A DNA stretch of 64,000 bases from a virus. Taxonomy: Duplodnaviria > Caudoviricetes. This document shows, piece by piece, positions 2,879-48,580 of the stretch. The stretch spans positions 1-64,000 of IMG/VR virus record IMGVR_UViG_3300033074_001413, one strand, 5' to 3'. Made by a program: the position numbers and the translations under genes. A model generated the notes under the pieces. That model saw only the letters and a program-made list of their open reading frames with translations. It searched no databases and was not told where the DNA came from. Position 1 is the stretch's first letter. Every line of letters starts with the position of its first letter.

Positions 2879-3439
2879 ATGGCTAGCTTATTAACTCCTC
2901 CCGGCATCATCCTGATCAACCCCAAGTACGAGCATAACGTTGGAGCTGCTCTACGTGCATGCTCCGCCTGGGGTATCTACAATCTCCTGTGGACTGGCCA
3001 GCGTGTTGTATTTGATCAGGACACCACCAAGCGCATTCCGCGTGAAGAGAGAATGAAGGGATATAAGGACGTCAAGTGGTTACCGAACGTCGACAAGCCA
3101 CTCAACCTCTTCGAGAACATTGTCCCTGTCGCCATCGAGATTAAACAGGGTTCAGAGTCACTAACCACGTTTGAGCATCCAGAGAACGCTGTATATTTGT
3201 TCGGACCGGAGGATGGCTCGATTCCACAGGTGTACTCAAGGTTGTGCCATCGGTTTGTTCACATGCCGTCTCATCACTGTCTCAACCTGAGTGCCGCCGT
3301 GAACGTGGTTCTATATGATCGCCGGATGAAAAGACAACGAGACGGCTTGGAAGAGGTACTTCCTCTCCACGAAGTTCTGCATGAGCACCGTGGTGTTGAC
3401 ACCCCAACACTCACCGGAATCGGATGGGATGGCAAATAA
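2879..3439 (+). CDS. SpoU/TrmH-family (SPOUT) RNA methyltransferase
   Basis: NPKYEHNVGAALR, YLFGPEDGSI and CLNLSAAVNVVLYDR SPOUT motifs; directly follows the tRNA. Confidence 0.85.
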   Translation: MASLLTPPGIILINPKYEHNVGAALRACSAWGIYNLLWTGQRVVFDQDTTKRIPREERMKGYKDVKWLPNVDKPLNLFENIVPVAIEIKQGSESLTTFEHPENAVYLFGPEDGSIPQVYSRLCHRFVHMPSHHCLNLSAAVNVVLYDRRMKRQRDGLEEVLPLHEVLHEHRGVDTPTLTGIGWDGK

Positions 3440-4485: not shown

Positions 4486-5679
4486 GTGCGTGAATTGGCT
4501 ACAAACGTTATCCGGACCCTCCGGGAACACGGCTTCCAGGCGTGGCTGGTCGGTGGGTGTGTACGGGATATCCATCTCAACGTCGAGCCGAAAGACTACG
4601 ACGTGGCCACCGACGCCACCCCTGCTCAAATCAACGCTATCTTCCCCGACTCTGACTTAGTCGGCGCTCACTTCGGTGTGGTCATTGTTCGCGGTGAAAC
4701 TGGCTACATCGAAGTCGCCACATTCCGCAAAGACCATGGCTACAGCGATGGCCGTCGCCCCGATGAAGTGTCATTCGTGACTAACCCCCAGGATGATGCT
4801 GCTCGTCGCGATTTCACCATCGGTGCCATGTTCATGGACCCTGAGACCAACGAGACTCTAGATTTCTTCGGCGGGCTAAACGACTTGCATAACGGAGTCA
4901 TTCGCACGGTTGGCGACCCCAACGTCCGATTCGCCGAGGACTACATCAGAATGCTTCGAGCCATCAGGTTCGCCGTTCGGTTCAAGTTCTCCATCGATCC
5001 GATGACCATGGTGGCGATCAGCAGCAACGCACACAAAATCACCAACATGGCGGCGGAGAGAATCCACGGGGAGTTGGTTCCTATTCTCTCGCATCGGAAT
5101 GCTGATTACGGCGTGGCCCTCCTTATACAGAGCGGCCTTCTACAACACATTCTTCCGGAGGCTGATCAGCCAGCCACCCATTACAGGTTTCAACAGGTTG
5201 GTGAATTCTCGTTCCCACTGTCGATGGCCATCCTGCTGACCCACTGCGATCAGCGCATCATCGAGTCGGTGATGAGGCGGATAGTCTGTACCACCAAAGA
5301 GACCGAAGAGACAGTCTGGCTGGTTGCCAACCGGAACAGCTTAATGACGGCTTGCACTATGCCAGTCCACGAGTTGAAGAGACTCTTGCGACATCAGTAC
5401 GCAAGGCACCTCACCGCGTTCTACCGGACGGTGAAAGTGATCGAACCGTTGACCGCCATCTGCAATGGGTTGAGCTACATCGCCCGCCAGGAATGGACGC
5501 ATGAGGATCTGTGGCCGACTCCTCTCATCAACGGTGAAACGCTCAAGGGCCTAGGAATGACCCCAGGCCCTCAGTTCAAAGTGGTTCTAGAAGCTGTTGA
5601 GAACGCTCAACTCGACGGTGAGATAACGACCGTGGACGAGGCTCTTGACCTCGTTGCCTCGTTACACATCAACGTCTAG
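4486..5679 (+). CDS. cca: tRNA nucleotidyltransferase (class II CCA-adding enzyme)
   Basis: LVGGCVRD, KDYDVAT, EVATFR, RRDFTI and EDYIRMLRAIRF motifs; lacks the poly(A) polymerase G[RK][RK]F motif (has LVGAHF). Confidence 0.9.
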   Translation: MRELATNVIRTLREHGFQAWLVGGCVRDIHLNVEPKDYDVATDATPAQINAIFPDSDLVGAHFGVVIVRGETGYIEVATFRKDHGYSDGRRPDEVSFVTNPQDDAARRDFTIGAMFMDPETNETLDFFGGLNDLHNGVIRTVGDPNVRFAEDYIRMLRAIRFAVRFKFSIDPMTMVAISSNAHKITNMAAERIHGELVPILSHRNADYGVALLIQSGLLQHILPEADQPATHYRFQQVGEFSFPLSMAILLTHCDQRIIESVMRRIVCTTKETEETVWLVANRNSLMTACTMPVHELKRLLRHQYARHLTAFYRTVKVIEPLTAICNGLSYIARQEWTHEDLWPTPLINGETLKGLGMTPGPQFKVVLEAVENAQLDGEITTVDEALDLVASLHINV

Positions 5680-9115: not shown

Positions 9116-9246
9116 TCATTTGGTTTTCCAGTCTCTCCGATTCTCTCCATTCGTAAACCATTTTACCACAGAAGAGGGGAAATGGTCAACCTACCCTACG
9201 CCTCATCTGTTGACTATCTCGAATGCTAATGTTATTCTTGAAAAGA

Positions 9247-10896
9247 ATGGCGCTACAGTTCTATACCAACATAGCTGCAGGATCTGATTGCCTTCTTCTC
9301 CGGGAGGTGGTTGACGGGCGGCGAATCAAGAGGAAGGTTCCGTACCAACCGACCTTATTCATTCCATCCAATAAGAAGACCAAATGGCGCGGCACCGATG
9401 AGACTGTAGTTGAGCCAATCAAGTTTGAGTCTGTGGCTGCGGCACGTGAGTATGTTAGGCAGCTCGAAGATGTGTCCGGAGCCAAGATATACGGCAACAC
9501 GGACTACAGATATGCATACCTCAATGAGGAATACCCAACGGAGCCAGTTGAATTCAATAGCAGCCAGATCCTGGTATTCAATATAGATATTGAGGTTGAT
9601 ACCACAGACGGGTTCTGTGAAGCACAGGAAGCAGTTAATCAGATCACGGCCATCACTATTAGGAACAGTCTAGATCGCCGATTCTATGTATGGGGTATGG
9701 GCGAGTTTCGCACTGACCGTAAGGACATCTCATACTTCCAGTGTAAGAACGAAGAGGACATGTTATATCGGTTCCTCGACTACTGGGAGTCTAATACGCC
9801 GGATCTGGTAATTGGGTGGAACATTGAGAACTTCGATATTCCATATCTGGTCAACCGCATCACGCGAGTGCGCGGGAAAGAAGAGGCACGTAGACTTTCC
9901 CCATGGAAGATCGTCCGTGAAAAGACACGCCATAAGTTCGGCAAAGACGTGTTTGTATATGACATTGGCGGGATGGCTATTCTCGACTATATGGTCATCT
10001 ACCGCAAGAACGTGTTGGAGCCAAGAGAGTCGTTCAGTCTGAATGCTATTGCTAATGTGGAGTTAGGCGAGAGCAAGATCAGCTACGATGAAGTGGCTAA
10101 CCTCAATCAGCTGCATGCCCAAAACCACCAGAAATTCATAGAATATAACATCCACGACGTCGAACTGGTGGAGCGACTGGACCGGAAACTCAAGCTAGTC
10201 GAACTGCAGCTGGTGGTGGCATATGCTACCAAGATCAACTATGACGATGTGTTCTCGCAGGTCAAGACCTGGGACACGCTAATCTGCAACCACCTGTTCC
10301 GTAGTAATATCGTCATCCCCATGAAAGAGCATGGAGACAGCAAGCATGAGCAGTATGCTGGTGCATACGTCAAAGAACCAATCGTCGGCCTACACTCATG
10401 GGTCACCAGCTTTGACGTTACCAGCCTCTATCCCAATATCATGCGTACTCTCAACATGGGGATTGAGACCAAAATGACCGCCGATAAATTACCATCGGAT
10501 CTACGTGCGTTCTTGGATACGCTTAGACCAAGAGAGGATCGCACCTCATTGGTCAAGAGAATGCTCAACGGCGATGTAAACATGTCTCCGATATACGACG
10601 CTAATCTGGCGCTGAGCGCTAATGGAGTAACCTACAAGCGCGAACCCCAAAGCTTCTACAGTCAGATGATCGATAATTTATTCAACCAGAGGGTGCTGTT
10701 CAAAAAGAAGGCGCAAAAAGGGAAAAAGGAAGTAGAGGCAATTCATACGGAGATGAAGAACAGACCGGACCCACATGGTTGTCATGGTAGTCTATATGAC
10801 CATGTTCAGTTCATTAAATCACCAGAGTTCGAGAAGGAAAAACGGTTGACATCTGAAGCAGCTGAAGATCAAAGAACTCCTCCTAAGGCAAGATAA
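9247..10896 (+). CDS. 43A: Family B DNA polymerase, N-terminal half (gp43A-like: exonuclease, motif A, first finger helix)
   Basis: DIEVD, GWNIENFDIPYL and YNIHDV exonuclease motifs; YAGAYVKEP and SFDVTSLYP motif A; stops in the fingers region. Confidence 0.95.
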   Translation: MALQFYTNIAAGSDCLLLREVVDGRRIKRKVPYQPTLFIPSNKKTKWRGTDETVVEPIKFESVAAAREYVRQLEDVSGAKIYGNTDYRYAYLNEEYPTEPVEFNSSQILVFNIDIEVDTTDGFCEAQEAVNQITAITIRNSLDRRFYVWGMGEFRTDRKDISYFQCKNEEDMLYRFLDYWESNTPDLVIGWNIENFDIPYLVNRITRVRGKEEARRLSPWKIVREKTRHKFGKDVFVYDIGGMAILDYMVIYRKNVLEPRESFSLNAIANVELGESKISYDEVANLNQLHAQNHQKFIEYNIHDVELVERLDRKLKLVELQLVVAYATKINYDDVFSQVKTWDTLICNHLFRSNIVIPMKEHGDSKHEQYAGAYVKEPIVGLHSWVTSFDVTSLYPNIMRTLNMGIETKMTADKLPSDLRAFLDTLRPREDRTSLVKRMLNGDVNMSPIYDANLALSANGVTYKREPQSFYSQMIDNLFNQRVLFKKKAQKGKKEVEAIHTEMKNRPDPHGCHGSLYDHVQFIKSPEFEKEKRLTSEAAEDQRTPPKAR

Positions 10897-11774
10897 TGGC
10901 GTGCATTGAGAAGATTTATTCAGTATCAGCATTGGTCGGATCGTCCATATGTAATGGGCGTTGTAACTTTTGCGCCGCCACTGGATTGCGTGATCAAGCG
11001 CCATCACGTGGTGAAAACAATGAACTATACTGGCGTAATTTCGCCGCCGCAATTCGACTGTCCGCTCGATACGGTGGATGGTCTCTTTCGCTAACCAGTA
11101 GCGGTGAGCCGACATGTGATCCAGAGGCTGTCACTAAGGCCATGTCAGTGTATCGGCGGTGTGCTAATGATGGGGCATACTTCCCAAATGTTAATCTCTT
11201 TACAAATGGTATTCTTCTAGGCGACGGCGATTTCTGTCACGAGTGGCTTCCGAAGTGGAAGGAACTCGGAATGACCAATATTGCGGTCTCCATTCATTCG
11301 GTTGATCCGGTCAAGCAAGCTGCTGTATATGGTGTCCCACATTATCCGCAGTTCAAGAAAATCTTCACCAACATCCAGAAACACGGTATTGGTGCCAGAG
11401 CCACTATTATTCTCCGAAAGGGAGAAGTCGACTCTGTACCAATGTACAAAGCGGCCATCAATCAGATTGTAGAAGATGGGTGTCGGAATATTACTGCTTG
11501 GCCTGTTGGAAAGCCAGACGGTAGCAGGAATGAGTTCACACCATCGCGGCTACAACTCTGGAAGATGAGATGGTGGCTAAAACAGAACGCCAAATTGTGT
11601 CACGGTCATGTCTGGGGTGGCGGGGTTTATGACTATAACGGGGTAATGCTTAGATTTACTGACTATGTGACCAAGCACGACCCAAACAAGGACTTCGTCA
11701 GACAGTTAGTGGTATTCCAGGATGGAACTGTGGCCTACTCGTGGATTAGAGAAGGCTCTCTATGCATGATCTGA
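10896..11774 (+). CDS. Radical SAM protein
   Basis: CNGRCNFC (CxxxCxxC), SSGEPT, LFTNG; coupled to gp43A through TAATG. Confidence 0.9.
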   Translation: MACIEKIYSVSALVGSSICNGRCNFCAATGLRDQAPSRGENNELYWRNFAAAIRLSARYGGWSLSLTSSGEPTCDPEAVTKAMSVYRRCANDGAYFPNVNLFTNGILLGDGDFCHEWLPKWKELGMTNIAVSIHSVDPVKQAAVYGVPHYPQFKKIFTNIQKHGIGARATIILRKGEVDSVPMYKAAINQIVEDGCRNITAWPVGKPDGSRNEFTPSRLQLWKMRWWLKQNAKLCHGHVWGGGVYDYNGVMLRFTDYVTKHDPNKDFVRQLVVFQDGTVAYSWIREGSLCMI

Positions 11775-12538
11775 AAAGTTTATCGTTGTTCGTTGGTACT
11801 GGTAGGTGTAACGCCAATTGCGCCCATTGCGCTGGCCGTCCACTACGACATACAGCGCCGGAACATGACGGCGACGACAAGCTAGAACACATCCGTAAAG
11901 TACTGATAGAATGCTATGAACGCGGCGCTAGGAATCTATCCATTAGTTGTAGCGGAGAGCCAACCCTCTCGCCAGTATCAGTCACGTCGGTGCTTCAACT
12001 AACATATTGGATGTCTAAGAACGGACAGGTGTATAAGCCGATAAACCTCTATACCAACGGAATAAAGATCGGCGAAAATGCCGCGTTCTGCCAGCGTTAT
12101 CTTGGTGTGTGGAAGTTACTCGGACTGACCCATTTCTACATGACAGTACATAGCTGTGATGAAAAGACTAACGCCAAAGTGTATGGGGTTAAGAAATACC
12201 CACCGCTCAAAACGGTGATTGGCCGGATGAAGGAATATGGGTTTAAGATTAGAGCGAACGTGGTGTTGAATAGAGAGTACTTTGACCACAATATCTTTAT
12301 CGATACAGCCACAAAGCTCCTAGAGTTGGGTGTTGACTCCATTTCCGCATGGCCAATTCGCGACAGTCATGATGAAATAGACAAAGGCCGTGCCCTACTC
12401 TCCTCCGATACGGAGAAGATTGTTGCTTGGGCATCCACACAGAAGAACGTGCATATTTATAGCGGCATGAACGACTATACGCACAAGATCACGCTGTTCC
12501 ATGATGGGCAGCTTACGAATAAATGGTGTAATCACTGA
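11762..12538 (+). CDS. Radical SAM protein, paralog of the upstream gene
   Basis: CNANCAHC, CSGEPT, LYTNG, HS..A.VYGV..YP, AWP and FxDG motifs shared with 10896..11774. Confidence 0.9.
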   Translation: MHDLKSLSLFVGTGRCNANCAHCAGRPLRHTAPEHDGDDKLEHIRKVLIECYERGARNLSISCSGEPTLSPVSVTSVLQLTYWMSKNGQVYKPINLYTNGIKIGENAAFCQRYLGVWKLLGLTHFYMTVHSCDEKTNAKVYGVKKYPPLKTVIGRMKEYGFKIRANVVLNREYFDHNIFIDTATKLLELGVDSISAWPIRDSHDEIDKGRALLSSDTEKIVAWASTQKNVHIYSGMNDYTHKITLFHDGQLTNKWCNH

Positions 12539-13206
12539 TGATAGATTTCTATGTTGAAGACCGGGTCAACCACAACGAAGTTGGCACAGAATATGACAGA
12601 GTTGTCTTTGAAAAGATCAAAGAAACTCTAGGCTCTAGTGATCTCAAACTTCTTGCAGTTGAAAATTGCCAAAGAACCAACGATGACTGGGCAGGTACAG
12701 ATAAGATATTTGTCACCAGTGGTGGAAGATTTCGTGTCGATTTCAAAACTGTGTTTAACTACTCATTCCCAGTCAAGTTAATTCATAGTGCCGACATCAC
12801 ACCACATCCAGAATGGGCTAATATACAGTTATACTATTGGTTCTACAGGAAACCCATCTGTGATTTTATTGCAGTCATCCATAGAAGTAGTAAAAAGGTG
12901 ATTGGTGTTTATATCACAGAAGTAGCGTGGGCTATCACCCTCAAGTATTGTTTAGAGTTTATCAACAAATATAGTAAGGCGGTATATGCCAATATCAACA
13001 TTAGGAAAAACGGGAGTCAATTCCTGTCGTCAGCAGTATACGTTCCTATAAGAGATTGGCATCAGCTATACTTAAAATATGAAAATACCCCAACATCAGA
13101 AATAGTAGATGAACCGTTTGATGCCCTGAGCATATTTCAATACATAAACCAGAAATTCCCATCCTGGCTTAAATCGGCTATAGACAATTACAATAAAAAG
13201 GGGTGA
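12538..13206 (+). CDS. Putative PD-(D/E)XK nuclease (possibly a free-standing homing endonuclease)
   Basis: DWAGTDKIF...RVDFKT motif; looks more AT-rich than its neighbours. Confidence 0.5.
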   Translation: MIDFYVEDRVNHNEVGTEYDRVVFEKIKETLGSSDLKLLAVENCQRTNDDWAGTDKIFVTSGGRFRVDFKTVFNYSFPVKLIHSADITPHPEWANIQLYYWFYRKPICDFIAVIHRSSKKVIGVYITEVAWAITLKYCLEFINKYSKAVYANINIRKNGSQFLSSAVYVPIRDWHQLYLKYENTPTSEIVDEPFDALSIFQYINQKFPSWLKSAIDNYNKKG

Positions 13207-14309
13207 TAATGGAGTTAGCAGAATTAAGTAATGACGAACTCATTGCTCTCGAGGAAAAACTGGATCTAGAGATCGCCTCCGCCGACCTCCGCCAAAAGGC
13301 CGTTAAGGTCTCCATGAACAGTCTCTATGGTGTTGTCGGTAACGGCTACTTCCGGTTCTTCGATGTGGACAACGCCGAGGCGGTGACCATCACCGGACAG
13401 CTTATCATTCAATATATCTCAAGAGAGTTGGACAAATATCTCAATGAACTATTTGGTACAACCAACTACGAGTATGTGATCTACTGCGACACTGATTCCG
13501 TATACGTCCGACTTGAAGAGTTCGTAAACAAATACTTCGCCGGGAAGCCACCGGAGTTCATCACCAAGAAGGTCGATAAGCTCTGTAAGGACAAGATTGA
13601 AAAGGCTATTGAGAGAATCTGTGAGGAGATAGTCTCCAAGGTCCTAAATGGTGTCCAGGGTCATCTCAGCATGAAACGTGAGGCCATCGGCGACAAGGGC
13701 ATCTGGACGGCCAAAAAGAGATACTTGGTCAATGTGCGCGACATGGAAGGGGTTGTGTACGCGGAGCCTAAAATCAAGTATATTGGCGTAGCCCTCGCCA
13801 CAGCGACGACACCCAAGTTCTGCCGCGATAGGATGCTTGAAGCTATTAAGATCCTGATGAAAGGCGATCAGGATAAGCTGATTGAGTATATTGAAGAACA
13901 GCGGCTTGAATTTAATAAGCTCGCCCCAGAAGACATTGCCTCGCCACGGACCTGCAACGGTATTGAGAAATACTCGGATGCCTCAACAGTGTTCAAGCCA
14001 CGGTGTCCATTCCACACCAAAGGTGCGATCATATACAACTATCTGGTCCGCAAGATGGGTCTTGAAAGTAAACTACAGTATATCAGAGAAGGAGAGAAGA
14101 TTAAGTATCTCTATCTGATAGAACCCAACCCAACGCCGGATAGGGCCATTGCATTCCTCAATACGCTCCCCAAAGAATTTGGGCTGCACCAATATATCGA
14201 CTATGACACTATGTGGAGTAAGGGATTTATCGAACCACTCAATCTTATTCTCGAGCCAATCGGGTGGAGATCGGAGAAGGTAGCTTCCCTGGACTGGATG
14301 TTTGAATGA
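13203..14309 (+). CDS. 43B: Family B DNA polymerase, C-terminal half (gp43B-like)
   Basis: QKAVKVSMNSLYG motif B, YCDTDS motif C, WTAKKRY, and C-terminal clamp-binding-like SLDWMF. Confidence 0.95.
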   Translation: MIMELAELSNDELIALEEKLDLEIASADLRQKAVKVSMNSLYGVVGNGYFRFFDVDNAEAVTITGQLIIQYISRELDKYLNELFGTTNYEYVIYCDTDSVYVRLEEFVNKYFAGKPPEFITKKVDKLCKDKIEKAIERICEEIVSKVLNGVQGHLSMKREAIGDKGIWTAKKRYLVNVRDMEGVVYAEPKIKYIGVALATATTPKFCRDRMLEAIKILMKGDQDKLIEYIEEQRLEFNKLAPEDIASPRTCNGIEKYSDASTVFKPRCPFHTKGAIIYNYLVRKMGLESKLQYIREGEKIKYLYLIEPNPTPDRAIAFLNTLPKEFGLHQYIDYDTMWSKGFIEPLNLILEPIGWRSEKVASLDWMFE

Positions 14310-41363: not shown

Positions 41364-41494
41364 CAAGGGCCAAACTAGTTTGTTTACGATCCACAAGTTT
41401 GGGGGTTTTGGGGTGGGTTTCGGAAATACCCCCTATGGCCCACCGGGACCCTTCCGGGACCCTTACGTAAACCGACCCCGCCGTCTACTTCGCG

Positions 41495-41929
41495 TCACCC
41501 CGTGTACTTCACTGGGTCCATCATGTTCCCTGCATCCCATGCGATCACTTCATCTATCCCATCGAGTCTGTCTATCACGGCATGCAGAGTTGACAGTGCG
41601 GCATCTGCATCAACATCCCTCGACTCACTTTCATCCTTCTGCGCGGCATGTAGATGTTGCAATGCCTTGGCTAGTTCCTTATCCATCGTGGTTACCAAGG
41701 TCGGTTCATTGTCGTCCGGATCCTTGTAGATAAGCATTTCCCTTTGGTTCTTTGGTATTGTGCCTACCGCTTTCTCAACCCGGCTATGCAAATCCCATAA
41801 CATCTTGAGCATCTGTTCATAATGCGCCTGATTGTAAGTTCCCATTCGGGACGGGTGAAACATGATCTTATCATGCAGGGAGTAAAGTGGTTTGGTATCC
41901 GCTTCGATAAGATACTGTTTGAATGTCAT
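41495..41929 (-). CDS. Putative internal head protein
   Basis: Start reassigned to ATG 41929 (MTFKQYLIEA); CTTTATA-N5-ATG. Confidence 0.65.
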   Translation of the reverse strand: MTFKQYLIEADTKPLYSLHDKIMFHPSRMGTYNQAHYEQMLKMLWDLHSRVEKAVGTIPKNQREMLIYKDPDDNEPTLVTTMDKELAKALQHLHAAQKDESESRDVDADAALSTLHAVIDRLDGIDEVIAWDAGNMMDPVKYTG

Positions 41930-41954
41930 ACTTGTATAAAGCGACCTAACCCAC

Positions 41955-41984
41955 TTGACAGATTGGGGTCTCATGTGGTACAAT
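41955..41984 (+). promoter_or_regulatory. Sigma70-type promoter with extended -10, upstream of the large ncRNA
   Basis: TTGACA-18 nt-TACAAT, with TGTGG immediately before the -10. Confidence 0.8.
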
Positions 41985-41990
41985 GGGTTT

Positions 41991-42615
41991 GTTCGGATGG
42001 GGCTGGTAGGGCGAGCTTAAAGCCAAGGCCAGTCGCCATGAGACACCCGGTGAACGACGGTCGCGAAAGGCGTGCGGCACCGGGATTGATGGTCTAGTTT
42101 AATTTCTGGAAAAACGCAGTAGTGTGAACGTCGGGTTCGGCGTGCAAGGACTCGGCGGCTATTGCATCCTGGGTTCAAGACCAGGGACCATCAACGTGGG
42201 AGAGTGTAGGCCAGTTACCGATGGCTACGAGCCGCCGTATGGCTCTGCCCTGGCGCAATGGGTCGGGCGGTAGGCGGCATCGGGACAATCGACGGGTCGT
42301 ACTCAGCGCGGGCGCGGATTGCACATCTCGGCTACCCGCCACTTCGATACCGTCCACTCTCCAAACGCAACGCTGCGGCAGGGCGGTGACCCAAGGTCGC
42401 TCCGGTGAAAGTCCGGCGAATCAACGGCACTCGTCACGGTAGAACGTGCACTCCTGCCGCAGCAACACATAGCACAACGGCAGAACCATTACTCGACGGC
42501 ACCAGAGCATGGGAGGCTCGCAATGACTCCACCGGGCTAGAAAACCAACCCAAATTAGACAGAAAAATCGCGCCGGAAAGGACACCCCTGGAGATCAACC
42601 TCCGGGGGTGATCCG
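41991..42615 (+). ncRNA. Large structured ncRNA candidate (~620 nt) with an embedded tRNA-like domain
   Basis: No credible ORF; many G-U-containing helices, T-loop motifs and a kissing-loop complement; ends in an 11-bp hairpin (42583-42610). Confidence 0.7.
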
Positions 42616-42664
42616 TTTAGGATAATTCCAGGTTTACCCGAACCTGTGGTAAACTGGTTCATAT

Positions 42665-42976
42665 ATGGATATCGATTTCATAGCAGAAGACACCGACGCC
42701 GGGTCGGTTTCCATTACGGCAGTTTCATCCAAGGCCTACGAGAAGTATCCCATGGGCTTCCGGCTGCTGACCCCTCAACAAGCGCAAAAAGAAGCGTCCG
42801 ATCTACGCGGCAGCGGCTTTACCATCCTGGATCGGACGAGCGCAACGTTGGGCGCAACGTGCGCGACGGGACCCTACAAACAAGTCCTATGCCATCGTCC
42901 TACTCTGCTCATGGACGAACCGTTTGGGGAGATGCAACCCGAACCAGTCCGGAATATCTACATCGAGGTCAAATGA
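42665..42976 (+). CDS. Hypothetical protein
   Basis: TGTGGTAAACT box just upstream; followed by a coupled small ORF starting MNWKYWH. Confidence 0.55.
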   Translation: MDIDFIAEDTDAGSVSITAVSSKAYEKYPMGFRLLTPQQAQKEASDLRGSGFTILDRTSATLGATCATGPYKQVLCHRPTLLMDEPFGEMQPEPVRNIYIEVK

Positions 42977-43613
42977 ACTGGAAATACTGGCATTCTCATT
43001 TCGGGTGTACTCACCCACCGCTCTGCATTCGCTGCACGTGGTGCGGCTACCGGGCCAACCCGTTGAAGTACTACCCGATTGCCATCCTGCAGATACTCGC
43101 GTTCAAGTGCCTGGACCTCCTGGCCTGGATGGAGAAATGGGACCAGCGATTCGCCTCCAACCAGCGGTAGATCTACTTCGCCCGCTCGCCCGCGATAGAA
43201 GTTGGCGAACGCGTCAACCAAACTTCGCGCATCGAATGGTCGAGCAGATCTCTGCCGGGACAATACCAAATCTCTCCGCGCAACAGTGCATAATCAGCAT
43301 CATCCAGGCTGAGTACGGTTTGGAGAAGGCGCAGGAGATTCAAGCTCTGTTCGACACGCTAAACCATACTTGACACGGCAGGTTCACGTATGGTTTAATG
43401 GTTGTAATGCAACCCTTCCAATCAATCGCCGAACTCACGCGCTGGTTCGCCGCGCTGCCCGTGCAGAGTGAAATGAGCGTTCTGCTCGACTTCCGGGATA
43501 TCGGCATCGGTCTGCAGCGGCGGGAGATTCAGAACCGCAATGGCAACTGGGTGATCGGGTTCGGTTCACTGGGCGTGCTGATCTAGCGGCACGGTCAGGT
43601 CACGTTCAGTTGC

Positions 43614-43981: not shown

Positions 43982-44764
43982 TTATCGTCTTTCACTCAGT
44001 ATCTGCTCGACTTCCGCCAATTTCACCGCCGCTTCCAACCCCTCCAGGTTCGTCCCCTCTACCTTGATATTCCTGTCTACCCACACCGTGTAGGTCCCTT
44101 GTTGGATGATAACGGAGGTGTTTGCCCTATCCCACTGCTCTGCGCTGCTGTTCTGGTTGATTTTGAACCCCGCCTGGATTAGTACATCGCGCCACTCCAT
44201 CGTTTCCTCGAAGTGGTCTAGGCCCTTGGTCACCACCTTGCCGTCCACCCAGATGGTATAGGTGAAGAAGTCCTTCGGCTTGGAGATGACCACGGCGACG
44301 TTGTCCTTCTCCCACTGCTCGTTCGGCCATGCACTCTTCTCATGCACGACATGGTAGCCCCTCGCGATGAGCACCTCACGCCAGTTTTTCAGCCCGCTAT
44401 CCTTCCAGTTTAATGTCTCGACCAAGGTGCCCAGGCGGTACTTCCACTCGACTTGAGCGGACTCCTTGCGCCACTTGTAGTCAAGCATCAGCGCCGTCCG
44501 ACAGTCATCCGGCGTGCGGTAAGATTCCTGACTTCCATCTGGGTAGGTAATGCATGCCCCATCCCCACTGCTGCACTCTATGAAATATCGGACGCGTGCC
44601 ACTGGTTCGACAATCACGCGTGCCGAATCGGGGTGGAAGGCTGGATCGGCTTCTAACACCCTAAGTGGGCGCGGACCTTCCGGGAATTCGAGAAACAGCT
44701 CGCCAATTTTGGGAATTCTATAGTCCCCGGTTGGCCTGACCTCAACGCCTTCCCACGTTAGCAT
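43982..44764 (-). CDS. Hypothetical protein with a C-terminal tandem duplication
   Basis: WREVLIARG..EQWEKDNVAVVI..YTIWVD is repeated as WRDVLIQAG..EQWDRANTSVII..YTVWVD. Confidence 0.7.
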   Translation of the reverse strand: MLTWEGVEVRPTGDYRIPKIGELFLEFPEGPRPLRVLEADPAFHPDSARVIVEPVARVRYFIECSSGDGACITYPDGSQESYRTPDDCRTALMLDYKWRKESAQVEWKYRLGTLVETLNWKDSGLKNWREVLIARGYHVVHEKSAWPNEQWEKDNVAVVISKPKDFFTYTIWVDGKVVTKGLDHFEETMEWRDVLIQAGFKINQNSSAEQWDRANTSVIIQQGTYTVWVDRNIKVEGTNLEGLEAAVKLAEVEQILSERR

Positions 44765-47434: not shown

Positions 47435-48580
47435 TCAATGTGCGACATTAACACGTTTCCACTTCCTACCGACGCGAATGGTGGATTTACCGACGAGTTT
47501 TGGTACACCGGATATGCGGCAATCGTCTATCTCAACCGCACCAGCCTTGATAAGACGTTGGGCTTCGGTATTTGACGACGCCATGCCAGCCGCGACCATT
47601 ACACGATCAAGACGGTCCTCCTGGACGGAGACCTCCTCAATGTCCGTTGGCTTTTCACCACGCGTGAATTGCTTCTCCCATTCTTCCTGTGCGATGTCCG
47701 CTGATTGACGGTCATGGAGCCATTCGACAATCCTCCATGCCAGTTCGAGCTTACATATCCTTCTATCCAGGTCTGGGCTAGCCGGATTGATGAATACCTC
47801 CGGGAACAGTGTCCCCCACCAACGAAACATCAGCGCGTCGGAAATGCTCATTACCTTGCTGAACATCTCGAACGGTGCTTCATTCAGCGCGATGTGGTTG
47901 CCAAGCGACTTGGACATCTTCTGGACGCCGTCAAGCCCCTCGAGCAACGGGACTGTGGCAATAACCTGAGGCTTGGCTTTGCGTAGGCGCATGTACTCAC
48001 GCCCGATCATCAGGTTGAATAGCTGGTCGGTGCCGCCAAGCTCGATGTCCACGCTCTCAATATGCGAGTCGTAGGCTTGCAGAAGTGGGTATACCAGTTC
48101 ATGCAGGTGGATTGGGGATTGGTCTGCGAACCGCTTCTTGAAATCGTCGCGTGCCATGATCTGCTGGAGCGTAAAGCTCGACAATAGACGAATCACGTCC
48201 GCGAAGGAAAACTTATCGAACCATTTGTTGTTCTCATGGACGCAGGTCTTGTCCTTATCCAGGATCTTGTAGACCTGATCCAGGTACGTAAGGGCATTCC
48301 GGCTGATGATGACCTCGTCTAAAGCGGGACGTAGGGAGTTGCGGCCAGTCGGATCACCGATTGCTGCAGTGGCAGTGCCGACGATCATCATCACGGTGTG
48401 ACCGTGGTCCTGGAACGTACGAAGGGTTTTGAGCAGGACGGCGTGGCCGAGATGGAGGTCTGGTGCAGTTGGATCGAACCCGGCTTTCACACGCAGTGGC
48501 TTTCCACTCGCGATCAACGCGTCGAATTCTTTCTCATCCACAACCTGTACGAATCTGTCACGCAGCTCCATGCCATTCAC
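47435..48580 (-). CDS. tyrS: Tyrosyl-tRNA synthetase
   Basis: KAGFDPTAPDLHLGH, IGDPTG, YPLLQAYD, ELGGTDQLFN, KMSKS, C-terminal S4 domain. Confidence 0.96.
   Translation of the reverse strand: MNGMELRDRFVQVVDEKEFDALIASGKPLRVKAGFDPTAPDLHLGHAVLLKTLRTFQDHGHTVMMIVGTATAAIGDPTGRNSLRPALDEVIISRNALTYLDQVYKILDKDKTCVHENNKWFDKFSFADVIRLLSSFTLQQIMARDDFKKRFADQSPIHLHELVYPLLQAYDSHIESVDIELGGTDQLFNLMIGREYMRLRKAKPQVIATVPLLEGLDGVQKMSKSLGNHIALNEAPFEMFSKVMSISDALMFRWWGTLFPEVFINPASPDLDRRICKLELAWRIVEWLHDRQSADIAQEEWEKQFTRGEKPTDIEEVSVQEDRLDRVMVAAGMASSNTEAQRLIKAGAVEIDDCRISGVPKLVGKSTIRVGRKWKRVNVAH

Follow-up and report, generated by a model that had tools for sequence, protein, structure and literature searches.

A tRNA-like domain with an interrupted anticodon loop in an uncatalogued phage RNA

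A 735-bp interval without genes, flanked by divergent genes, lies in the window examined here, the 64,000-nucleotide (nt) stretch that makes up the first 64 kb of the 98,840-base IMG/VR record IMGVR_UViG_3300033074_001413. It carries a predicted transcription unit for a non-coding RNA (ncRNA) of ~620 nt, and our subject is a 109-nt domain of that RNA, positions 42086–42194, which has the shape of a transfer RNA (tRNA). Transcription of the unit is predicted to start at ~41991. The interval folds throughout (z of −2.9 over 636 nt) and no Rfam family matches it. Judged by its gene traits (a split family-B DNA polymerase, a UvsX/RecA-like protein, a DnaB-like helicase and a T4 neck protein), the source is an uncultured T4-type sewage phage, and the record is estimated to be ~55% complete.

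The RNA is present in RNA libraries. In a look-up of sequencing runs the stretch was present in full in two runs; three metatranscriptomes, all from a single study, also contained it, as did three further runs with small shares. Contigs of four runs were aligned to 41400–43200. Contigs from two metatranscriptomes matched at 100% identity, covering 42005–42375 (depth 13.6), 42415–42575 and 42010–42484. They start at 42005 and 42010 and end at or before 42575, an extent that fits the predicted promoter and terminator, and no metatranscriptome contig covered the flanking genes (41400–42004 and 42576–43200 were uncovered in the contig data). The contigs run across 42086, the long arm of the domain and 42194, with no joint reported; an uncut, unspliced form is thus present in RNA libraries in which the neighbouring genes were not seen.

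The initial annotation had described a tRNA mimic at this locus with an acceptor-like stem, a D arm, a T arm and a long stem, and each of these elements was recovered where it had been placed (Table 1). The domain folds at −44.1 kcal/mol, against −28.6 ± 3.3 kcal/mol in dinucleotide shuffles (z of −4.69, with 0 of 200 shuffles as good), and in the full 624-nt context its helices, the D stem apart, have probabilities of 0.92–1.0. Along the nine pairs of the acceptor-like stem the pair probabilities are 0.63, 0.92, 0.97 (five pairs), 0.72 and 0.49, and those of the hairpin inserted in the long arm are 0.97–1.0.

Table 1. Features of the ncRNA unit, of its tRNA-like domain and of the phage genes discussed in the text (window coordinates).
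Feature	Position	Strand	Details
tRNA-like four-way junction	42086–42194	+	109 nt
Acceptor-like stem, 9 bp	42086–42094 / 42186–42194	+	includes U-2:A74 and U-1:A73
TA	42095–96	+	between acceptor-like stem and D arm
D arm GUUU/AAAC	42097–42100 / 42112–42115	+	11-nt loop AATTTCTGGAA with A14, A15, G18, G19, A21
Long arm	42116–42165	+	18 bp, 5-nt bulge, 9-nt loop
Long arm, lower helix, 8 bp (2 G-U)	42116–42123 / 42158–42165	+	
Long-arm bulge GTGAA	42124–42128	+	
Long arm, upper helix, 10 bp (3 G-U)	42129–42138 / 42148–42157	+	
Long-arm loop GGCGTGCAA (also given as GGCGUGCAA)	42139–42147	+	
T arm CCUGG/CCAGG	42168–72 / 42181–85	+	loop GTTCAAGA (also given as GUUCAAGA)
5′ part of ncRNA, two hairpins	41997–42084	+	pair probabilities ~1.0
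Next multibranch domain	42195–42367	+	closed by 42195–97 / 42365–67 and 42199–206 / 42355–62
Candidate partner loop UUGCACAUC	42319–27	+	hairpin in multibranch domain 42195–42367
Variable ncRNA stretch	42389–42445	+	many substitutions and indels in the wastewater relative
Predicted sigma-70-type promoter of ncRNA unit	41955–41984	+	TTGACA, 18 nt, TG-extended TACAAT; 11/12 matches
Likely terminator	42583–42612	+	11-bp G+C-rich hairpin, then AUCCGUUU (short U run)
Flanking gene	41498–41929	−	singleton, no PHROG match
Flanking gene	42665–42976	+	singleton, no PHROG match
Neighbouring gene	43982–44764	−	singleton, no PHROG match
SpoU/TrmH-family methylase	2879–3439	+	phage gene
CCA-adding enzyme	4486–5679	+	phage gene
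Bacterial-type tyrosyl-tRNA synthetase (TyrRS), S4-like C-terminal domain	47435–48580	−	phage gene

Numbered in the tRNA register, the domain has the expected nucleotide at 21 of 23 conserved or semi-conserved tRNA positions: U8, G10, Y11, A14, R15, G18, G19, A21, R24, C25, G26, U33, R37, Y48, G53, T54, T55, C56, R57, A58 and C61. The T arm supplies G53, T54, T55, C56, A57, A58 and C61, and all tertiary partners of the elbow and core are present (U8–A14, R15–Y48, G18/G19 with T55/C56, T54–A58 and G53–C61). A covariance model made from the element alone aligned an ordinary tRNA-Val end to end at 32.7 bits, with the long arm collapsed. From the fold score, the 21 positions and this alignment, we conclude that the likeness to tRNA is real and not a chance cloverleaf. 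The 3′ end departs from it, as the initial annotation had noted: A73 is followed by ACG, without the CCA that each of the record's eight real tRNA genes encodes (Arg-UCU, two Cys, three Lys, Leu-UAA and Thr-GGU). A copy of the 3′ half of a host tRNA, of the attP type, was considered and rejected, as no host tRNA has this T arm.

Two divergent relatives were found, a wastewater contig (X6, 42153–42499) and an activated-sludge RNA contig (X7, 42144–42299). Both are identical to the window over 42144–42228, that is, over the 3′ half of the tRNA-like domain and a further 34 nt, and X7 then has eight substitutions in the following 71 nt (Fisher p of 0.0015). The multibranch domain at 42195–42367 is conserved in both, with the helix 42246–50 / 42260–64 re-paired, and one hairpin of the variable stretch shows a compensatory change from A:U to G:C at the pair 42389/42397; the compensatory change and the re-paired helix argue that the larger RNA is under structural selection. 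Further on, X6 is heavily rearranged across 42389–42445, and its indels are not multiples of three, on which ground a reading frame in the ncRNA region was rejected. The X3 RNA contigs break across 42376–42414, overlapping this stretch, possibly a variable linker comparable to those in the phage RNAs ROOL and GOLLD. Neither relative shows the 5′ half of the domain. The X6 and X7 contigs both begin within 42144–42153, in the loop or the upper 3′ strand of the long arm, a shared start that could be due to chance, given the 3× depth, or mark an RNA end or a variable 5′ half.

This invariance bears on whether the domain is a decaying tRNA pseudogene, carried without function in a longer transcript. 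It stays below the tRNA threshold even without its insert, its T arm has either a G·A mismatch or an 8-nt loop, and it lacks CCA, all of which decay would explain. Against that, its 3′ half is unchanged in both relatives, which diverge a short way beyond it, 21 of the 23 conserved positions are intact, and the inserted hairpin combines length and perfect pairing with high stability; we therefore regard a pseudogene as very unlikely.

Searches beyond these two contigs returned no further example. The 736-nt region had no blastn relatives among 50,697 phage records, and no viral or metagenome contig had an exact match to T-arm 19-mers or 21-mers; in genome contigs the 19-mer had two matches, both by chance in coding sequence. 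A gapped D-loop/T-loop pattern gave eight chance matches in viral contigs, none fitting covariance model R1, and a gapped pattern of the T loop and the next loop gave 62 in metagenome contigs, all by chance, one of them an ordinary tRNA-Val. Applied to the record plus three further phage records, model R1 matched only the element itself, and three loci reached through neighbour proteins or TyrRS held no similar RNA.

We asked whether the domain could be a working tRNA. ARAGORN at default settings called no tRNA, nor did it call a transfer-messenger RNA (tmRNA), and Rfam 15 returned nothing, whether at its gathering score or, for queries of 1501 nt and 125 nt, at E ≤ 10. A tmRNA was rejected on these results and because the domain is internal and contiguous. 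The initial annotation had held that the anticodon arm is replaced by a long stem. The long stem is there, but the arm it was said to replace can still be recognised: the lower 5 bp of the long arm are the equivalent of an anticodon stem, and deletion of 42128–42158 leaves a 5-bp stem and a 7-nt loop, G-U-GUG-A-C, with U33 and A37, interrupted in the actual sequence by a 31-nt hairpin at the 37/38 site. The domain as it stands has no open 7-nt anticodon loop, with the hairpin interrupting it and positions 32, 33 and 38 paired in the 8-bp lower helix, and it probably cannot decode.

The loop that emerges on removal of the insert, together with the paired −1:73 position that is a hallmark of tRNA-His, hints at descent from a tRNA-His gene in whose anticodon loop a hairpin was acquired or grew. 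The hint is a weak one. For ARAGORN to accept the insert-deleted sequence, the threshold has to be lowered to 92% of normal or less, a level that gives four extra calls per 98.8 kb in the real genome and none in shuffles. With introns allowed and the threshold at 80%, the program does report tRNA-His(GUG) with a 31-nt intron, 42128–42158, at the canonical 37/38 site, but these settings yield 288 calls in this genome and ~210 in its shuffled copies. Nor is there a bulge-helix-bulge: the arm has a single 5-nt bulge, and the 3′ splice site would fall within a continuous helix. Searches of the 98.8-kb record, itself ~55% complete, found no tRNA_int_endo splicing endonuclease, RtcB or Rnl1 (the Rnl1 control search matched nothing) and no HisRS or Thg1, and the insert-deleted 76-nt sequence had no significant match among the tRNA genes of the 50,697 phage records.

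A real tRNA-His(GUG) gene, with a 31-nt intron at 37/38 removed by a phage or host activity before trimming and CCA addition, would account for the loop left after removal of the insert and for the 8-bp acceptor stem made by the −1:73 pair. It would also suit a record that has no tRNA-His of its own and encodes a CCA-adding enzyme. The calls at relaxed settings alone, the misplaced splice site and the enzymes not found all speak against it, as do the contigs of two RNA runs, which are unspliced and show no joint (contigs drop rare forms); in addition, the pair is U-1:A73 and not G-1:C73, and every real tRNA here encodes CCA. To our knowledge, protein-spliced tRNA introns have not been described in bacteria or phages. 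We consider such a gene highly improbable. A normal intron-containing tRNA that splices to a canonical loop was one outcome that the initial annotation had named as fatal to its proposal; the His-like loop with its inserted hairpin comes close to that, but neither evidence of splicing nor a splicing enzyme was found.

The acceptor-like stem is hemmed in on both sides. The second of the 5′ hairpins (42046–52 / 42078–84) stops 1 nt short of it, and the next helix starts at 42195, leaving linkers of 1 nt (5′) and 0 nt (3′); the domain thus has no single-stranded 3′ tail, and positions −1, −2, 73 and 74 are paired. Elsewhere in the ncRNA, the D-loop segment UUUCUG (42103–42108) is complementary to CAGAAA (42560–42565), in a long unpaired A-rich region towards the RNA's 3′ end, and could form an alternative or tertiary pairing with it. 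Duplication between the upstream hairpin and the long arm was rejected, only GTGAACGNCGG and GGCGTGC being common to both. The segments GGUGAAAGUCCGG (42404–16) and GACAGAA...CGCCGGA (42559–79) resemble the CR-I and CR-V/P4 strands of RNase P RNA, with a 7-bp pairing possible. The resemblance is probably a coincidence: an RNase P RNA was rejected, as Rfam gave no RNase P match at E ≤ 10 and the GGUGAAAGUCCGG motif is broken by indels in X6.

These surroundings matter for another alternative, one also raised by the initial annotation, in which the domain is a processing signal: cleavage at the domain by host RNase P and a 3′ endonuclease would free a 109-nt RNA, to which the phage enzyme might add CCA, and would set the ends of a 5′ RNA (~95 nt) and a 3′ RNA (~420 nt). 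The tRNA-like shape, with its acceptor/T stack and elbow, would suit such processing, the phage encodes both a CCA-adding enzyme and a SpoU/TrmH-like methylase, and there is a precedent in the tRNA-like domain of Mycobacterium smegmatis YrlA, which RNase P cleaves and which receives a CCA tail (PMC4201824). However, contigs of two runs bridge 42086 and 42194, though partial processing would escape contigs, and the 9-bp acceptor stem, paired through 74, has helices abutting on both sides in place of a free tail. Nothing ties either enzyme gene to the ncRNA. Contigs leave room for processing, since minor forms and RNA ends are invisible in them and tRNA-sized RNAs are poorly captured, and we judge a processing signal to be fairly unlikely. 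Theta/HDV-like ribozymes that flank phage tRNAs form a nested double pseudoknot that begins no more than 5 nt to either side of the 3′ end of the tRNA (PMC10879173). One at the 3′ end of the domain was looked for with a loose descriptor and rejected: no candidate started at 42190–42200, and Rfam gave no HDV-type match.

The long-arm loop offers a candidate contact with the rest of the RNA. As had been proposed, GUGCAA (42142–47) is complementary to UUGCAC (42319–24) over 6 nt, and both segments lie in predicted 9-nt hairpin loops; what the complementarity means is less firm. When loops were shuffled, the long-arm loop gained a partner of at least 6 nt in 1.35% of trials (P of 0.0135). The one variant seen, in X6, has a partner loop shorter by two bases (UUGCACAU to UUGCAU), keeping UUGCA and so five Watson–Crick pairs with a possible G-U, and no covariation was seen at the kissing loop. 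A loop–loop contact is plausible but unproven, at a chance probability of about 0.01–0.1. Because the UGCA core common to both loops can pair with itself, two molecules might also make contact.

Around the ncRNA, the three neighbouring proteins have no relatives among 5.8 billion clustered proteins and none in PHROG, and the neighbourhood of the RNA is unique to this phage lineage. The −35 hexamer TTGACA (41955–41960) reads TGTCAA on the opposite strand, where it precedes the divergent gene starting at 41929, which looks leaderless; this suggests back-to-back overlapping promoters. The downstream gene, starting at 42665, has a promoter-like TTTACC-17-TAAACT of its own near 42633–42655. The record encodes a TyrRS and no tRNA-Tyr was found in its 98.8 kb; the closest TyrRS in IMG/VR (57% identity) is on a 405-kb phage contig. 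The family-B DNA polymerase is divided between 9223–10896 and 13203–14309, and two radical-SAM genes and one unassigned gene lie between the halves (region 9223–14309). Beyond the window, 71157–71551 holds a tight array of two tRNA-Cys, two tRNA-Lys(UUU) and one tRNA-Lys(CUU) genes, and the duplicated Lys and Cys tRNAs recall sets that phages are believed to carry as a counter to host nucleases that attack tRNAs.

Extra phage tRNA genes are often linked to tRNA-targeting defences, and this phage, with three tRNA-Lys and two tRNA-Cys genes, might use the domain as a decoy or sponge: the mimic would occupy a tRNA-recognising protein (an anticodon nuclease, another tRNA-targeting defence or a tRNA enzyme) and not be consumed as a tRNA. 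Retention of the elbow and core with a masked anticodon loop would agree with that, as would the presence of the RNA in metatranscriptome libraries that lack the flanking genes. A decoy for an anticodon nuclease, however, would be expected to keep its anticodon loop open; direct evidence is lacking, and no partner protein can be identified, the neighbour genes being singletons among the 5.8 billion proteins. A decoy is, in our view, distinctly unlikely.

The reading we favour, with moderate confidence, is that 42086–42194 is a tRNA-derived, non-decoding domain that forms an integral part of an uncatalogued, separately transcribed phage RNA of ~620 nt and has a structural role in it. Of the functions put forward in the initial annotation, that of a structural module fits best, given a domain embedded in a larger expressed RNA; its origin is possibly a tRNA-His. 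The D/T-loop elbow and tRNA core are retained, and the 31-nt hairpin seals the anticodon loop and makes the arm a rigid 18-bp rod, with the CCA end absent and the acceptor stem locked into a multi-helix junction. Sequence and fold, an unspliced and uncut RNA in the libraries and local conservation are observed; the structural role and the loop–loop contact are inferred. The domain would then be a pre-folded, L-shaped scaffold or joint inside the large RNA, its rod acting as a strut that presents the 9-nt loop for pairing with the loop at 42319–42327. Such pairing within one molecule would lock the architecture, and between molecules it could act as in ROOL and GOLLD; the elbow would stay free as a docking surface.

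Several observations weigh against this reading or limit its support. The A-U-rich D stem is thermodynamically weak, with a probability of ~0.14. The T arm favours an 8-nt loop over a canonical T loop: an all-Watson–Crick T stem leaves the 8-nt loop at −43.6 kcal/mol, and the canonical 7-nt register brings a G·A mismatch at −37.4 kcal/mol, a cost of ~6 kcal/mol. No helix of the domain shows covariation, the 3′ half being invariant in the relatives, and the kissing pair could be chance, since any loop pair gives at least 6 nt in 10% of shuffle trials. The RNA evidence consists of Logan contigs, which reveal neither the ends nor the strand of an RNA, nor any minor forms made by processing or splicing, and standard RNA-seq captures mature tRNA-sized RNAs poorly; in a record that is only about half complete, the absence of an enzyme is weak evidence. 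The chief limitation lies in the source of the RNA, a single phage lineage that is rarely sampled.

A bolder proposal goes beyond the favoured structural reading in one of two directions. The RNA might belong to a new self-assembling class of phage RNA in which a domesticated tRNA body, its anticodon loop turned into an 18-bp strut, acts as the joint through elbow and kissing loop, or the strut-bearing tRNA body might be a handle for the tRNA enzymes of the phage (CCA-adding enzyme, TrmH-like methylase, TyrRS) or for a host tRNA-targeting defence. We think this unlikely; either version, if true, would put the tRNA fold to a use new to phage biology. The three phage enzymes make interaction tests designable.

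Compared with known systems, the domain resembles canonical tRNA-His(GUG) in its GUG triplet, U33 and A37, in an 8-bp acceptor stem with a paired −1:73 position and in standard core and elbow nucleotides; it differs in the 31-nt hairpin in the anticodon loop, in U-1:A73 for G-1:C73, in the T-stem mismatch or 8-nt loop and in the missing CCA. Among eukaryotic systems, the mascRNA of MALAT1 and the tRNA-like units of the herpesvirus MHV68 are cut out by RNase P/Z and CCA-tailed. They share with the present domain the form of a tRNA-shaped, non-decoding module within a longer non-coding transcript, whereas here RNA contigs run through both domain ends. Small stable RNAs are also known from T4, whose species 1 and 2 (rnaC and rnaD; ~120–140 nt) are co-transcribed within the tRNA cluster. 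The present RNA parallels them, by description only, as a stable-RNA candidate and non-coding RNA of a T4-type phage, but is ~620 nt long, has its own predicted promoter and lies far from tRNA genes.

The YrlA RNAs come closer in design. They too retain an acceptor-like stem, a D arm and a T arm, their anticodon position runs into a long helix and the domain does not decode, but YrlA ends at its long Ro-binding helix and closes its acceptor stem with a loop (PMC4201824), whereas here the topology is permuted, with the long arm loop-closed and the acceptor stem open. Membership of that family found no backing: Rfam gave no match, and the 98.8-kb record yielded no Ro60/TROVE or RtcB gene.

GOLLD and ROOL, recently shown to build RNA-only cages, assemble through kissing loops, and phage tRNAs occur in the linker of GOLLD (10.1101/2024.12.08.627333, also PMC12286853). 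Like them, the RNA described here is a large (600–800 nt), promoter-driven and highly folded phage RNA with a tRNA-type unit inside. Loop–loop contacts are a main building principle in GOLLD and ROOL; a possible counterpart here is the 6-nt loop complementarity. Unlike them, it matches no Rfam model at gathering score or E ≤ 10, and it does not lie beside a tRNA island. The tRNA unit of GOLLD sits in a disordered linker, whereas the one here is non-canonical, with a masked anticodon loop and no CCA, and is clamped in a junction. tRNA units recur inside or beside these large, ornate phage RNAs, and the present one is a tRNA body probably out of translation (sealed anticodon loop, no CCA, clamped acceptor) that is yet invariant, as far as its 3′ half shows, and found in RNA libraries; it offers a clean model for what a tRNA fold does inside large RNAs such as GOLLD and ROOL, be it as scaffold, docking site, enzyme handle or decoy.

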